A stretch of 64,000 nucleotides of DNA, from IMG/VR virus record IMGVR_UViG_3300028571_000011. One strand, written 5' to 3'. Below, one piece after another: positions 9,054-16,536 of this stretch. The translations under genes and the position numbers were made by a program. Within the stretch, counting starts at the first letter, position 1, and each line of letters begins with the position of its first letter. Below the pieces are notes generated by a model. That model was not told the DNA's origin. It saw only the letters and a list, made by a program, of their open reading frames with translations, and searched no databases. Source of the stretch: a virus (taxonomy: Duplodnaviria; Heunggongvirae; Uroviricota; Caudoviricetes).

Positions 9054-9116
9054 GAGCCGAACGCAACTGAGGGTTACCTTTTTTGGAAACAACCCCTCAA
9101 CCGCAATCCCTTGCTC
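9054..9116 (+). ncRNA. Y RNA-like element Y1 (Ro-binding-stem mimic: 5' GAGCCGAA / 3' CTTGCTC, internal hairpin)
   Basis: terminal helix GAGC/GCUC + bulged C + GA/UU as in Y RNAs; internal TGAGGG/CCCTCA stem; follows tRNA-Arg. Confidence 0.55.
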
Positions 9117-9127
9117 ATTTATATTGT

Positions 9128-9203
9128 GGATCGGTAGCTCAGTTGGTAGAGCACTCGCCTCTTAAGCGATAGGTCGAGGGTTCGAATCCCTCCCGGTCCA
9201 CCA
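9128..9203 (+). tRNA. tRNA-Lys(CTT)
   Basis: GGATCGG/CCGGTCC; anticodon loop CTCTTAA; T-loop TTCGAAT; CCA. Confidence 0.8.
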
Positions 9204-9328
9204 CAAGTGATTCTCATTTCAGGCAATGTCTAGAATGAGAATCACATCAGAGATAGAGAAACGACAACACGAAAGGAGAACGATATGATTTGGTACAAAC
9301 GCACCGACGCCAGAGGCTCTTCTCTCGC

Positions 9329-9401
9329 GGGTCGGTAGCTCAGCTGGTAGAGCATCGAGTTTTTACCTCGTAGGTCGAGGGTTCGAATCCCTCCCGGCCC
9401 C
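9329..9401 (+). tRNA. tRNA-Lys(TTT)
   Basis: GGGTCGG/CCGGCCC; anticodon loop TTTTTAC; no encoded CCA. Confidence 0.75.
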
Positions 9402-9418
9402 CTTCAAAGAGAAGACGA

Positions 9419-9697
9419 ATGACAGTGTACATCGTTGGCAGCGACGAATTCGAAGTGACAGAGTCTGAAGTGGAGGCCCTTGTGAAGGGCTTCGGCAACG
9501 GAGACGTCGCAGCCAACCACTGCTTCCTCCAAGAGAGGAACAGGAAGCTCACAGCACCAATGGTGACCAAAGGAGTGACCAAGGTGATTCTTCAGGCCGT
9601 AGCAGACGGCACAGCAGTCATTCTCGATACACAAGAGAAGTACCGAGATTGCTTGCTTGAGAAACAGAATGCGCTGAATGCGCCGTCATCGTCTTAG
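9419..9697 (+). CDS. hypothetical protein inside the tRNA array
   Basis: ORF of 92 aa; 3' end overlaps tRNA-Thr by about 16 nt. Confidence 0.4.
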   Translation: MTVYIVGSDEFEVTESEVEALVKGFGNGDVAANHCFLQERNRKLTAPMVTKGVTKVILQAVADGTAVILDTQEKYRDCLLEKQNALNAPSSS

Positions 9698-9756
9698 TGG
9701 AAGGACATCCCCTTGGTAAGGGGAAAACCCGAGTTCGATTCTCGGTGACGGCTCCA
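9682..9756 (+). tRNA. tRNA-Thr(GGT)
   Basis: GCCGTCA/TGACGGC; anticodon stem TCCCC/GGGGA; loop TTGGTAA; CCA. Confidence 0.75.
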
Positions 9757-9760
9757 CTCC

Positions 9761-9780
9761 GGTTCGTTCGTTCGTTCGTT
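9761..9780 (+). repeat. (GTTC)n microsatellite spacer
   Basis: GGTTCGTTCGTTCGTTCGTT between two tRNAs. Confidence 0.6.
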
Positions 9781-9783
9781 TGT

Positions 9784-9859
9784 GCCGATATAGCTCAGTT
9801 GGTAGAGCAATCGCCTTGTAAGCGGTAGGTCCCGTGTTCGAGTCACGGTATCGGCTCCA
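9784..9859 (+). tRNA. tRNA-Thr(TGT)
   Basis: GCCGATA/TATCGGC; anticodon loop CTTGTAA; CCA. Confidence 0.85.
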
Positions 9860-9872
9860 TACAGTACCCCAA

Positions 9873-9948
9873 GTCGCTGTAGTTCAGTTGGTAGAATGGG
9901 TTCCTCATAAGGACACGGTCGGAAGTTCGAATCTTCCCAGCGGCACCA
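9873..9948 (+). tRNA. tRNA-Met(CAT) copy 1
   Basis: GTCGCTG/CAGCGGC; anticodon loop CTCATAA; T-loop TTCGAAT; CCA. Confidence 0.75.
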
Positions 9949-10010
9949 GAAAGAGATGGCAGCGGAAGTGAACCTACGTAAAATGTGAAACCGAACCCGC
10001 ACTCTGTCAT

Positions 10011-14499: not shown

Positions 14500-14537
14500 G
14501 CATCTTTTCGTGCGGTTTTAACCTAGTGTAAATTCGT

Positions 14538-14611
14538 GCGGGTGTGGTATAGTGGCCGTGCCTTAGCCTTCCAAGCTAATGACACCAGTTCGAGTCTGGT
14601 CATCCGCTCCA
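14538..14611 (+). tRNA. tRNA-Gly(TCC)
   Basis: GCGGGTG/CATCCGC; anticodon stem TTAGC/GCTAA; loop CTTCCAA; CCA. Confidence 0.75.
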
Positions 14612-14846
14612 AAGATAGAGTTACAATGACAAAGTCAAACACAGACCGATACAAATGGTATCGGTCAAAGAAGAGGGTTCTGATAACCAGCTGGTTATTG
14701 GCAAATCCTTGTGTACCCACACGGGTATAGAACAAAGTACCAGCAAGGTTGCCGGTGCGGCCTCTGTAGAGAAGCCCAAAAACTTTACATGAGGAAAAGA
14801 AGAGAAGCAAAGGCTTCTGGGAATATCTAGTCAGTGTTCGTTGTAT

Positions 14847-15262
14847 GGGCTCAACCCGGTTTCGATTCGGGATGAAAAGCTAAGAAGTGCGTGTCGTGGT
14901 TGGCCGAAGGGCCACGTAAAAAATCGGTCAAAAACAATCAGCCAACGATAACATCGAAGGCGCTTCTTTCCGCATGGCTGCCTGAAAAGGTAGTCCTCGG
15001 TAAGAGGTGAGGGAACGGTTCTAGCGAACTTAGCTCCCCGTCGGGTCCAACAGAGAGCCTTCTGTAAAGGAACCCCGGCGTAAATCACTGAAGGCTAGGC
15101 GTTGATGGTGGTCGCGGCCATCAACGAGTAGAATCAAACAGCTGACCACCGAGTCTCGGACTCAACCTCATTGCCACGGTGGAGGTAAAAACTGCGGCTA
15201 CACACGTAGAGTTCTTCGTAATAGTCTTGAAGACGGGGGTTCGATTCCCCCTGAGTCCACCA
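14847..15262 (+). ncRNA. ssrA: tmRNA (SsrA); tag reading frame encodes (A)ANDNIEGASFRMAA
   Basis: 5' GGGCTCAACCCGGTTTCGATTCGGGAT tRNA-like end; 3' GACGGGGGTTCGATTCCCCCTGAGTCCACCA; tag ORF 14941..14985. Confidence 0.75.
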
Positions 15263-15466
15263 GAGCAGTTAGGCACCGCTGCAATCCACACGAAAGTGTG
15301 ATAGAGAGACCTACGATGCCCTGACAGGTGCAATGCTTGTCTGGTGGAGGTAACGATTCAGGTCGTTGCCCTGACCGTGATGGTAGTAGCGGGTTGCTTC
15401 AGGGTTATTGTCCAACCTTGGATTGACGCGGCGGGTAAAACTGCCCTACCAACCTTTCATTGCTCA

Positions 15467-15494
15467 TTGACTTCAGCGTAAGTTCTGGTATAAC
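15467..15494 (+). promoter_or_regulatory. sigma70-like promoter TTGACT-N16-TATAAC driving a near-leaderless ORF
   Basis: -10 ends 6 nt before the ATG at 15501. Confidence 0.5.
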
Positions 15495-15500
15495 TAGCAA

Positions 15501-15866
15501 ATGATCACTGCCACCATTCCTGCAGAAGCCATCCCGACCGACCGTCGGGTGTACCGTGCTCGCGGCCATGGTGCAGCAGGCATCGGCGATTACAACCGGC
15601 ACTACGCCAAGTACGTCTCAGAGCCGCTCTGGCTCAACAACTTCGACGAAGCCTTCGAGAAGCTTCGTGAGTCTCTGGCCAACTTCAGCATTGACCTGAC
15701 CAAAGAGTCCTTCAATGCAGAGATCAAGCGTGTCTTGAACTCGAAGAACCTCGATGCCTTCTGCAAGGTCGGTCGCGCTGGTTCTGGTTACAAGCTGGAG
15801 CGTCTTGGCAAGACTCGACTCTACACTTTTCTTTGTCCTCTTTTTGAGTACGATGAAGAACTGTGA
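15501..15866 (+). CDS. hypothetical protein
   Basis: ORF of 121 aa downstream of the promoter. Confidence 0.5.
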   Translation: MITATIPAEAIPTDRRVYRARGHGAAGIGDYNRHYAKYVSEPLWLNNFDEAFEKLRESLANFSIDLTKESFNAEIKRVLNSKNLDAFCKVGRAGSGYKLERLGKTRLYTFLCPLFEYDEEL

Positions 15867-15931
15867 ACATCTCATCGTCAGGCTCTGGTAGTCTGGCGCG
15901 ACCGGGCAGGCCCAGCGGTTCTGGGTTGTTT

Positions 15932-16006
15932 GCGGGTGTAGCTCAGTGGTAGAGCATCTCGTTGCCAACGAGAATGTCATGGGTTCGAATCCCATCATCC
16001 GCTCCA
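15932..16006 (+). tRNA. tRNA-Gly(GCC)
   Basis: GCGGGTG/CATCCGC; anticodon stem TCTCG/CGAGA; loop TTGCCAA; CCA. Confidence 0.85.
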
Positions 16007-16022
16007 TTTCAGATAGAAGACA

Positions 16023-16409
16023 ATGCCTCTTAAAGACCCAGTTGCGAGACGAGAGTACCAGCGAAACTACAGCAGAAATCGGCTGCATACCGACCCCATT
16101 GCAAAAGCAATGCACGCGCAACGAGTTAAGAAAAACAATAAGAAAGCAAGAGAAGCCATCCGGGCTTTGGTTGACGTCTTCAGAAAAGACGGTTGCCTGC
16201 TTTGCGGAGAAAGCGACGCGTGTTGTTTAGATGCCCACCACTTAGACCCGTCATCGAAAGATTTCAGTATAGGTGAGGCTGCGAGAAGGCTCCTTACCCT
16301 CAAAAAGGTAAGGGAGGAAATTACAAAGTGCGTCTGTGTCTGTAGAAATTGCCATGCTAAGATACATGCCGGTTCTCTAGTTATAGAAAGAAACCTTTGC
16401 GGGGTATAG
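16023..16409 (+). CDS. HNH homing endonuclease
   Basis: CLLCGE...CCLDAHHLDP...CRNCHAKIH HNH motifs. Confidence 0.75.
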   Translation: MPLKDPVARREYQRNYSRNRLHTDPIAKAMHAQRVKKNNKKAREAIRALVDVFRKDGCLLCGESDACCLDAHHLDPSSKDFSIGEAARRLLTLKKVREEITKCVCVCRNCHAKIHAGSLVIERNLCGV

Positions 16410-16471
16410 AAATGGTATCTTATGGGCCTCATAAGCCCAAGTTCTCCGTTCAAGTCGGAGTCCCGCATCCA
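16398..16471 (+). tRNA. tRNA-Met(CAT) copy 3 (initiator, elongator or tRNA-Ile2 cannot be told apart)
   Basis: TGCGGGG/TCCCGCA; anticodon stem TGGGC/GCCCA; loop CTCATAA; T-arm CTCCG TTCAAGT CGGAG; CCA. Confidence 0.65.
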
Positions 16472-16477
16472 TTCAAC

Positions 16478-16536
16478 GAGCCGAATACGACCGAGGGTTA
16501 CCTGCATAAACTACCCCTCAACTGTGAACCTTGCTC
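16478..16536 (+). ncRNA. Y RNA-like element Y8
   Basis: GAGCCGAATACGACCGAGGGTTACC...CCCCTCAACTGTGAACCTTGCTC; follows the tRNA. Confidence 0.55.

Follow-up and report, generated by a model that had tools for sequence, protein, structure and literature searches.

A multi-copy family of putative Y RNAs, comprising short hairpins and long tRNA-like RNAs, around the Ro60 gene of a Caudoviricetes genome fragment

Nine elements that are probably Y RNAs were identified in a 64,000-nucleotide stretch of DNA from a virus of the Caudoviricetes (IMG/VR record IMGVR_UViG_3300028571_000011), hereafter called the window. They lie among tRNA genes around rsr, the gene of a Ro60/Ro-sixty-related (Rsr) protein, all on the rsr strand and within 3 kb of it. 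They form two classes, six short hairpins of ~60-70 nt that resemble YrlB and three long tRNA-like RNAs of 127-198 nt of the YrlA type. Y RNAs bind Ro60 through a bulged helix, tether it to PNPase and gate its cavity (PMC4201824 and PMC12135203), and phage Ro60 genes with adjacent Y RNAs are known, 22 phages having been listed by Chen et al. 2014 (PMC4201824) and the Thermus phage phiLo having been described in 2025 (PMC12135203). The elements of the window are read here as phage-encoded Y RNAs, the RNA partners of the phage's own Ro60/Rsr, a reading that was drawn from sequence comparison and given a probability of about 0.82. An initial annotation of the window had proposed a multi-copy Y RNA-like family with a Ro-binding bulged helix around rsr, and comparative evidence (the identity of rsr, the GNCGAA motif, linkage and covariation) supports that proposal. 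The idea of a single family held insofar as the Ro-site helix is common to all copies; it missed the division into two classes, in which the long members are tRNA mimics of the YrlA type.

Elements around rsr and their terminal helix

The protein predicted from 11985-13730, with its start codon ATG at 11985, matched the Pfam families TROVE (3e-38) and vWA_Ro60 (5e-55) and the structures of Xenopus Ro60 (PDB chain 1YVP, 2e-113) and Deinococcus radiodurans Rsr (2NVO, 2e-98). It was also 40-43% identical to the "Ro-like RNA binding protein" of Gordonia and Mycobacterium phages (actinobacteriophages). By homology this open reading frame (ORF) is a bona fide Ro60 protein, and the elements do surround a TROVE/vWA Ro60 gene as had been claimed. 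The gene and the nine elements are given below. R1 and R2 denote covariance models of the short and the long class, P1 to P3 helices, A5 an alignment of long elements, and z the standing of a minimum free energy (MFE) fold against shuffled sequences. Loci in other genomes are numbered from L121 upwards and are not to be confused with elements L1 to L3.

11985..13730, + strand: rsr, Ro60/Ro-sixty-related protein of 581 amino acids, assigned from Pfam, PDB and phage homologues
9051..9119 (motif span 9054-9117), + strand: S1, putative short Y RNA, YrlB-like hairpin between tRNA-Arg and tRNA-Lys; R1 74.3 bits; P1, P2 and P3 folded
10785..10843, + strand: S2, degenerate short element; R1 50.9 bits; 3' strand of the terminal helix lost, no CTTGCTC
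11598..11729 (motif span 11601-11727), + strand: L1, putative long tRNA-like Y RNA (YrlA-type); R2 93.6 bits; Rfam YrlA 20.3 bits; fold z = -3.2; a row of A5
11745..11817 (motif span 11748-11815), + strand: S3, putative short Y RNA with divergent inner hairpin; R1 42.1 bits; fold -22.2 kcal/mol, z = -2.9; flanks tcc/gga pair
13877..14011 (motif span 13880-14009), + strand: L2, putative long tRNA-like Y RNA (YrlA-type); R2 97.1 bits; Rfam YrlA 20.8 bits over the full model
14020..14224 (motif span 14024-14221), + strand: L3, putative long tRNA-like Y RNA, split and permuted; R2 94.1 bits; Rfam YrlA 35 bits, E 3e-5
14094..14161 (motif span 14096-14160), + strand: S4, putative short Y RNA nested in the acceptor loop of L3; R1 61.1 bits; folded
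14435..14502 (motif span 14438-14500), + strand: S5, putative short Y RNA between tRNA-Met and tRNA-Gly; R1 62.7 bits; flanks tgc/gca pair
16474..16540 (motif span 16478-16537), + strand: S6, putative short Y RNA beginning 7 nt past tRNA-Met; R1 60 bits; flanks caac/gttg pair

The 5' motif GAGCCGAA occurs 12 times in the window against 2.63 expected, a count reached in 0 of 100 shuffles, and nine of the 12 matches lie on the + strand between 9054 and 16485. All eight element starts of the initial annotation carry the motif on that strand. The + strand match at 11966 is not the 5' end of a Y RNA; it forms the 3' arm of a hairpin, CTTGCTCAcaggtgTGAGCCGAA, before rsr. The earlier count of at least eight was correct for those eight and overlooked a ninth element, at 14024-14221, which encloses the copy at 14096. 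The shared 3' end CTTGCTC was recovered in six of the eight copies (at 9110, 11720, 11808, 14153, 14493 and 16530); it has decayed to CACTCGTTTG in the copy at 10785, and the copy at 13880 ends in CTTGTTCT. Element sizes, previously put at 52-130 nt, were recomputed between motifs as 59-67 nt for the short class (59-64 nt in four copies, 67 nt at 11748) and 126-197 nt for the long class (126, 129 and 197 nt). The internal stems quoted before (TGAGGG/CCCTCA, CCCAATGG/CCATTGGG and GCTGGG/CCCAGC) are all present, and most copies do follow a tRNA directly, five of the eight beginning 7-22 nt downstream of a tRNA 3' end. L1 ends 256 nt upstream of rsr, while L2 begins about 147-150 nt and L3 290 nt downstream, all three on the rsr strand and inside the ~4 kb typical of YrlA genes. 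Scanning the 64 kb on both strands with R1 gave nothing beyond these copies, and the second tRNA cluster, at 27.2-28.7 kb, had no match. ARAGORN and the Rfam tRNA model called a tRNA at none of the nine elements, and there were only weak partial tRNA/tmRNA matches to the T arm region.

The terminal helix was examined in a set of 50 elements (A7) that had been picked by core motifs alone, with the eight bases outside the motifs then inspected for pairing. Flanking positions -1/+1 were paired in 50/50 (CG 28, UA 15, AU 7), positions -2/+2 in 50/50 (GC 26, AU 18, CG 5, UA 1) and positions -3/+3 in 41/50, with about half or fewer paired further out. Within the core, C12-G25, the bulged C13 and G14-U24 were invariant and A15-U23 was present in 48/50, which is the Y RNA geometry around a bulged C that had been proposed for the ends. 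The third pair switched between G-C (39) and A-U (10), and the core GAGC/GCUC was replaced in places by GAAC/GUUC, GGAC/GUCC or GGGC/GCCC. Covariation of this helix, named earlier as a check, is present, with two to three outer pairs covarying strongly. From the flank pairing (50/50, 50/50 and 41/50) and the invariant core, the terminal helix is judged to be real and to extend two to three pairs beyond the coordinates first given; in S1, for example, the flanks aat/att lengthen P1. An invariant centre with covarying flanks is the pattern expected of a protein site that is read sequence-specifically.

The layout common to both classes consists of two to three variable base pairs and G-A-G-C/G-C-U-C, the bulged C, the G-U and A-U pairs, CGAA, and a second helix with a GGUUAYC module. 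Two published descriptions bear on it: GNCGAAN0-1G is the motif of bacterial YrlA and YrlB near Ro60 genes, and the bulged helix GGUCCGA/UUGACC is the Ro60 site of animal Y RNAs (both PMC4201824), the latter being compared here by its published description. S1, S2 and S4 carry GCCGAACG, an exact GNCGAANG, and S3, S5 and S6 carry GCCGAAU. In the long class, GCCGAAG in L2 matches GNCGAAN0-1G exactly, GCCGAAAAG in L1 has a spacer of 2 where 0-1 is expected, and ACCGAAG in L3 has a G-to-A change compensated by a C-to-U change in the 3' strand. By this comparison of sequences, the terminal helix corresponds to the site at which animal and bacterial Y RNAs bind Ro.

The short-class hairpin, with helices P1 to P3, is backed by covariation. 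In a MAFFT alignment of 17 short copies (A1), 91.9% of the cells were paired and five pairs showed compensatory changes; each summary measure beat at least 488 of 500 column shuffles, four of the five beat 500/500, and all three-column slides fell much lower. Because the core of the terminal helix was nearly invariant in A1, the sample was widened to 68 model-aligned short copies from 44 loci (A4). Here 96.7% were paired, against 39-46% with the partners slid, and 11 of 15 pairs were compensatory, in an alignment that was fitted to the model and hence leans towards its structure. The second terminal pair in A4 was A-U in 51 copies, G-C in 14 and G-U in three. The earlier claim that structure is conserved over sequence is in accord with the covariation of the internal helices in A1, A4 and A5; the stretches that separate the helices have diverged freely, a sign that selection acts on the RNA structure.

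S2 lies within a cassette (window 10011-10906, corresponding to 1486-1706 of locus L125) that has been swapped between strain variants 99% identical. The window version holds a PD-(D/E)XK endonuclease ORF, a tRNA-Asn gene and the decayed S2; the L125 variant has a different tRNA-Asn and a tRNA-Leu-like gene. The swap looks like endonuclease-driven mosaicism of the tRNA array.

U-rich tails resembling GCAUUUUU directly follow the terminal helix in many elements of L121, L122, L127 and L132 (for example L127 12416-12548) and at 14499-14510 in the window. They recall the oligo-U tails found in animal Y RNAs and could have a terminator-like role or bind a protein.

Linkage of the elements to rsr

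A protein search returned Rsr homologues at 99% and at 57-71% identity. The relatives' contigs include those of L121 (180 kb, from soil), L122 (382 kb), L127, L131 and L132; in all five, rsr lies within a tRNA array and is followed by genes for a CCA-adding enzyme, an RNA ligase, and NUDIX and NADAR proteins. Elements with the termini GAGCCGAA...CTTGCTC(G) are present on the rsr strand in L121, L122, L127, L129 and L132 (Rsr 57-64% identical), and L131 (67%) has the close variants GAGCCGAC and CATGCTC. Short and long forms both occur in the relatives' loci. Manual counts gave 9 elements in L121, 10 in L127 and 10 in the IMG/VR locus L150, where they lie upstream of an rsr whose product is 37% identical. 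The suggestion that the window holds more Y RNAs than are annotated for any single genome was overstated; with L121, L127 and L150 at 9-10, this number is a property of the lineage and not of the window alone, in data where that lineage is favoured by the means of detection. The sbRNA families of nematodes exceed it.

For a sample independent of the RNAs, 80 IMG/VR rsr loci were fetched by an Rsr alignment query (a single-protein Rsr query gave no IMG/VR matches). All R1 matches (36/36) and all R2 matches (40/40) in these loci were on the rsr strand, most of them within 1 kb, and a locus usually held one to four. A second search, with the short-class pattern GAGCCGAA-N6-12-GGTTAYC-N20-48-CTTGCTC, matched 22 IMG/VR stretches. 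Eleven of these have rsr within the fetched stretch and at least three more are on contigs where a separate search found rsr; L147 is homologous to a stretch whose contig carries rsr, and two of the 22 are without model support and probably due to chance. A collection scan with the looser pattern GAGCCGAA-N10-GGTTAC was discarded for its more than 120 single chance matches. A generic "NNNC-CGA ... UU-GNNN" detector gave 2.3 wrong-strand matches per locus, too noisy for counting, and was kept for listing candidates only.

L136 (9140-9230) and L142 (6040-6130) present a short element on large IMG/VR contigs, with no tRNA gene or rsr within 5-9 kb. An extended -10-like box, TGGTACAAT, lies ~15-20 nt upstream of this element, which is possibly an independently transcribed copy far from rsr, to judge by its sequence context.

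The association extends to bacteria. A pattern scan of bacterial genomes gave 30 matches, of which ~27 are estimated to be chance under uniform base composition, so that only the 11 model-confirmed loci were used. These include Singulisphaera, Phenylobacterium, Fimbriimonadales, Iamiaceae and Deinococcales, and 8/11 have rsr on the same strand within the stretch. The consensus GAGCCGAA...GGUUAYC...CUUGCUC stands beside rsr in Singulisphaera, Phenylobacterium, Fimbriimonadales and Iamiaceae. The same termini are thus found beside rsr, on its strand, in phages and bacteria with 35-71% Rsr identity. Deinococcales metagenome-assembled genomes (L256, L259, L237 and L238) have two to four model-supported short elements near rsr, which fits the several small RNAs reported upstream of rsr in D. 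radiodurans.

An alternative is that the elements punctuate the tRNA array, as spacers that guide RNase P/Z/E processing or stabilise polycistronic tRNA transcripts independently of Rsr. Five copies 7-22 nt past a tRNA 3' end, with the rest in the same array, would suit this, as would the IMG/VR tRNA arrays L137 and L141, which have an element and no rsr inside the fetched stretch. It is nevertheless very improbable. The second tRNA cluster of the window has no elements, and the loci L129/L130, L149, L151 and L145 have no tRNA genes yet carry the same elements beside rsr, counter-evidence to the generic tRNA-spacer signal that the initial annotation had named as the finding that would speak against Y RNAs. 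All 76 model matches in the 80 rsr loci are on the rsr strand, and the invariant bulged C, G-U pair and CGAA are Ro-site positions that a processing signal would not need. Because the 76/76 model matches are co-oriented, and because bacterial rsr loci and pattern-scan stretches with rsr carry the element, it is concluded from these comparisons that the element follows rsr and not tRNA arrays.

The long tRNA-like class and its nested unit

The long elements contain a permuted tRNA-like domain. The Rfam YrlA model (RF02553) aligns to L1, L2 and L3 across a T arm, an acceptor-like stem and a D arm, in permuted order. In L1 the T arm is at 11640-11658, the acceptor-like stem at 11659-11665/11674-11680 with the loop UCCAUCAU, and the D arm at 11683-11696. 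L2 has the 3' strand CUUGUUC (CTTGTTCT), in which one G-C pair of the terminal helix has become a G-U wobble, and occupies the same position as the elements at L121 11790, L127 12416, L129 2461 and L132 2774. L3 has the termini GAACCGAA ... CTTGTTCG and the terminal helix GAAC/GUUC.

Fifteen long elements from seven loci were aligned with MAFFT (A5) after the inserts of nested units had been removed in silico; 93% of the cells were paired, against 37-48% when slid. Compensatory changes were seen in 17 of 27 pairs, including 7/7 in the acceptor stem, 4/5 in the T stem and 4/5 in P2; the D stem was a near-invariant GCUC/GAGC. R2, which was built from A5 and contains no actinobacteriophage sequence, gave 93.6-97.1 bits for the long elements of the window and at most 38 bits for tRNA-tRNA junctions. 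As a positive control it was applied to mycobacteriophage ET08, for which Chen et al. 2014 (PMC4201824) published a YrlA, and to Gordonia phage Cashline. The ET08 match, of 71.8 bits, falls at L235 3701-3837, immediately before the Ro gene, its agreement in coordinates with the published YrlA being unconfirmed; in Cashline, two sites preceding the Ro gene reached 64-76 bits. Inspection by eye showed two short elements and a long one ahead of Ro in ET08, with CCGA near the 5' end and the GGTTAYC module, like those of the window.

The matches of R2 at tRNA-tRNA junctions (≤38 bits) were rejected as false positives that arise from the permuted topology. They fall at 9793-9921 and 14271-14408 in the window and in the tRNA arrays of L121, L122 and L127. 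A junction has the topology of YrlA, with the T arm and acceptor 3' strand of one tRNA followed by the acceptor 5' strand and D arm of the next. This likeness hints, at the level of sequence, that YrlA-type RNAs could originate from tandem tRNA junctions, and the layout of L3, a 3' tRNA half, a spacer and the 5' half of a next tRNA, suggests the same. Other identities were considered for the elements and rejected: tRNA pseudogenes (no anticodon arm, and helices under selection), a permuted tmRNA (a 19-bit partial match only, at 14065-14176) and CRISPR-like or tandem repeats (irregular spacing and structured units).

L3 is a nested unit in which a complete short element interrupts the acceptor loop of a long one. 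In DNA order it has the T arm (14065-14081), the acceptor 3' strand CCTCCCC (14082-14088), ACCA, a 3-nt spacer, S4, a 7-nt spacer, the acceptor 5' strand GGGGAGG (14168-14174) and the D arm (14177-14192). The pieces on either side of S4 are 14020-14095 (5') and 14161-14224 (3'), and the Rfam YrlA alignment bridges them with an 80-nt insertion in the acceptor loop. The same layout was found twice in L121 and also in L122, L127 and L132, and an encoded NCCA follows the acceptor 3' strand in 6/6 nested units of the window's lineage. The orthologous long elements at L122 3444 and L131 4542 have a simple closed loop at the site of the insert. Insertions in the acceptor loops of long elements were also seen in distant lineages (L161, L178, L212 and L220). 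In Mycobacterium smegmatis, RNase P cleaves the acceptor loop of YrlA, whose acceptor stem is 7 bp long, and the RNA acquires CCA in vivo (PMC4201824). From this precedent and the encoded NCCA we infer that L3 would mature into a two-piece YrlA, with the short Y RNA set free. The acceptor stem of L1 is also 7 bp long and its loop contains UCCA, so that by analogy L1 may be cut in the same way as the M. smegmatis RNA.

A second alternative is that the elements are selfish or recombinogenic repeats, either MITE-like or homing-endonuclease-associated cassettes in tRNA arrays, with no function as RNA. They are multi-copy and have inverted-repeat-like termini, S2 is part of the PD-(D/E)XK cassette swapped between 99%-identical strains, and short elements occupy the acceptor loops of some orthologous long elements (L3 of the window) and not of others (L122 3444, L131 4542). 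Against such repeats, all copies share a single orientation, and between lineages with Rsr identities of 35-71%, four to five helices are kept up by compensatory substitutions while the sequence between helices diverges, a mark of selection on structure. The sole IS-type Pfam match in the inspected loci was Zn_Tnp_IS91 (L129, ~2.3 kb from the elements), there having been no dedicated search for transposases or target-site duplications. Mobility and function are also not exclusive, and duplication is expected in any gene family. Repeats devoid of RNA function are accordingly a poor explanation and were assigned little weight.

The tRNA-likeness of the long class suggests a third alternative, in which the elements are decoys or mimics directed at host factors (anticodon nucleases, tRNA-modifying enzymes, host Rsr or PNPase) and not mainly partners of the phage Rsr. 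The long class is closely tRNA-like, with a T loop, a D arm, a 7-bp acceptor stem and NCCA; the CCA-adding enzyme and RNA ligase of the phage suggest a conflict over tRNAs; and the Yrl RNAs of the Thermus phage phiLo bind host PNPase on their own (PMC12135203). In both classes, however, conservation is highest in the Ro-site helix rather than in anything tRNA-like, a tRNA-like domain is absent from the short class, and the strict linkage to rsr speaks for Rsr as the primary partner. A primary role as decoys is therefore unlikely, and it overlaps with the Y RNA reading, in which the variable module engages other factors.

Several observations weigh against reading the elements as Y RNAs, in addition to the leaning of A4 towards its model and the removal of inserts before A5 was aligned. 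The Rfam YrlA scores of 35 (L3), 20.8 (L2) and 20.3 (L1) bits are far below the gathering score of 69, and the metazoan Y_RNA family (RF00019) had no match at E ≤ 10 in 8200-17400; the Rfam scan advised in the initial annotation thus returned no Y RNA family at gathering score. Taken singly, short copies have MFE folds with no more than a modest advantage over shuffles (z -1.1 to -2.9), and L2 has none (z -0.16). L136/L142, L137, L141 and L146 carry an element, and the presence of rsr on their contigs is not established. A scan for promoters and terminators in the region did not rise above the shuffled background, so that co-transcription with the tRNAs is an assumption. As to the Rfam YrlA scores, the candidate sites upstream of the Ro genes of ET08 and Cashline reach 37.4 and 42.2 bits with Rfam YrlA, also under the threshold, and a sub-threshold score therefore says little for phage YrlAs.

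The rsr leader, proposed mechanism and genomic setting

A further copy of the Ro-site helix precedes rsr itself.

11952..11973, + strand: hairpin of the rsr leader, a Ro-binding helix closed by a loop, UUGCUCA-caggug-UGAGC-C-GAA

This hairpin, CTTGCTCAcaggtgTGAGCCGAA, ends ~12 nt before the ATG at 11985, and its CGAA runs straight into the ribosome-binding site GAAGGA that follows directly (CGAAAGAAGGAAUACAUG). Its order, UUG-stem-loop-stem-C-CGA, is that of a Ro-site helix in which the loop closes the end left open in Y RNAs. Of 104 loci, 24 have a hairpin of this kind 4-38 nt (mostly 10-13 nt) upstream of the rsr start. Chance would account for ~0.13 in these leader windows, an estimate taken from the opposite strand, on which 1.63 Mb contained 18. 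Perfect stems were demanded in the search, so that the evidence consists in positional enrichment and not in pairing. The stems differ between loci, and the loci include phages in which Rsr is only 42-46% identical; besides the window, the hairpin was found in L127 (9938-9963), L132 (931-951), L159, L170, L191, L193, L195, L197-L201, L203, L204, L208, L210, L215 and L216. In L121 and L122 a forward short Y RNA abuts the ribosome-binding site in its place. Judging from position and sequence, the hairpin probably serves translational autoregulation by Rsr. A literature search found no paper describing it.

The following scheme is proposed for the Y RNAs of the window. The genes would be transcribed together with the surrounding tRNAs. 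RNase P would cut at the 5' end of the next tRNA or of a tRNA-like acceptor stem, 3' processing would occur at the preceding tRNA or at NCCA, and exonucleases would trim the RNAs back to the stem protected by Rsr. Each RNA would bind Rsr via the conserved helix, and its variable or tRNA-like module may gate the Rsr cavity or tether Rsr to partner enzymes, as known Y RNAs do with PNPase, so that nine RNAs could yield a set of differently specialised Rsr particles during infection. The nested unit at 14020-14224 would contribute three RNAs, the two pieces of a YrlA that has a true CCA end and the short Y RNA set free from between them. Through the closed copy of its site next to the rsr ribosome-binding site, free Rsr probably represses the translation of its own gene, in which case Rsr output would track the supply of Y RNAs. 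The combined picture, of a platform of 9-10 Y RNAs in a tRNA operon (on uncultured, tRNA-rich contigs that are phage-like and reach 382 kb) with a Y-in-Y, two-piece CCA Y RNA and a leader autorepressor titrated by Y RNAs, is put forward tentatively and at slightly less than even odds.

Among known RNAs, YrlA (RF02553; PMC4201824) is the closest counterpart of the long class, being encoded beside rsr on the same strand, with a 5' GNCGAA-type motif in its terminal stem and a permuted tRNA-like domain (T arm, closed acceptor-like stem, D arm) as in L1, L2 and L3. The window differs in scoring far under the Rfam threshold, in having three paralogues in one locus, in the additional conserved GGUUAYC module, and in L3, whose acceptor loop holds a complete short Y RNA and an encoded NCCA and for which two-piece maturation is predicted. 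The short class resembles the YrlB/Yrn2-type RNAs of Salmonella, M. smegmatis and D. radiodurans, which are a second, smaller Rsr-bound RNA near YrlA with GNCGAA and a long interrupted hairpin; this likeness was drawn from descriptions, there being no Rfam model. The window has six copies rather than one, among tRNA genes and up to 3 kb from rsr, and its consensus GAGCCGAA...GGUUAYC...CUUGCUC recurs in several bacterial phyla. The phage phiLo encodes a Ro60 (phiRo60) with adjacent stem-bulge-stem RNAs, Yrl1 and Yrl2, which bear CGAA and were shown by experiment to bind its Ro60 and host PNPase (PMC12135203). Compared by that description, phiLo has two RNAs, both upstream of the gene, and the text as far as read mentions neither a tRNA array nor a tRNA-like domain. 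Metazoan Y RNAs (RF00019; 1YVP) share the bulged-C helix followed by G-U and A-U (GGUCCGA/UUGACC against GAGCCGA/UUGCUC in the window) and an outer stem that is variable yet base-paired; their mode of transcription differs and their loop modules are unrelated.

Permuted and two-piece genes are also familiar in the tRNA family, in the form of two-piece tmRNA and the permuted tRNA genes of some algae. L3 is similar in that the CCA-bearing 3' half comes before the 5' half in the DNA, and the segment between them has to be removed. It differs in that the segment is a conserved short Y RNA and the halves are joined by the Ro-site stem, and in lacking an mRNA-like domain and an anticodon arm.

The numbers of Y RNAs described per genome are at least two per studied bacterium (PMC4201824), two in phiLo (PMC12135203) and perhaps three in a Listeria phage. 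What stands out here is the expansion to 9-10 copies within a tRNA operon, the nested units and the leader mimic, the biology of Ro60 and Y RNAs being already known. The nested, permuted Y-in-Y unit with encoded NCCA and the closed Ro-site hairpin before the rsr ribosome-binding site appear to be undescribed in the literature searched. The system is conserved from bacteria to humans, yet the reason for having several Y RNAs in one cell and the matching of Ro60 levels to their number are poorly understood. Nine to ten paralogues with one invariant protein-binding helix and modules that are either tRNA-like or plain hairpins offer a compact system for asking what each module recruits, and the leader hairpin provides a simple hypothesis for autoregulation of Rsr. 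If the proposal for the nested unit is true, the RNase P cleavage in M. smegmatis becomes a designed feature and not a curiosity. The consensus and the models R1 and R2 recover Y RNAs in phages and bacteria that Rfam YrlA scores below its threshold.

Two further features of the window complete its setting.

8258..17319, + strand: tRNA array of 23 tRNA genes and one tmRNA gene, hosting the Y RNA-like elements
53029..54489, + strand: gene of the CCA-adding enzyme/poly(A) polymerase family (Pfam PolyA_pol, PolyA_pol_RNAbd and HD)

ARAGORN called 28 tRNA genes and one tmRNA gene in the 64 kb, all on the + strand; Rfam confirmed this set and added two weak tRNAs. The array is broken up by homing-endonuclease-like ORFs. 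The CCA-adding-enzyme gene is syntenic with those of L121, L122 and L127, and its product is, by homology, a candidate for completing CCA ends on the tRNA-like Y RNAs. A megablast search of the region against annotated phages gave tRNA-sized matches only, and tblastn with a 763-amino-acid ORF of the window gave no matches; on these searches the phage is without a close cultured relative.

The window also encodes an RNA ligase (58840-60135) and its own tmRNA (14847-15262; tag GQKQSANDNIEGASFRMAA), and the relatives add NUDIX, NADAR and metallophosphatase genes to the set of tmRNA, CCA-adding enzyme and RNA ligase. Together these genes look like a module for RNA repair and translation support around the Rsr/Y RNA locus. 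Within the array, tRNA-Val(gac) has its 26-nt 3' end, GTCACTGGTTCAATCCCAGTAGGGCG, in two direct copies, one at 14280-14305 and one at 14306-14331. This tRNA thus has two alternative T-arm/acceptor 3' ends, with TACCA after the second only.

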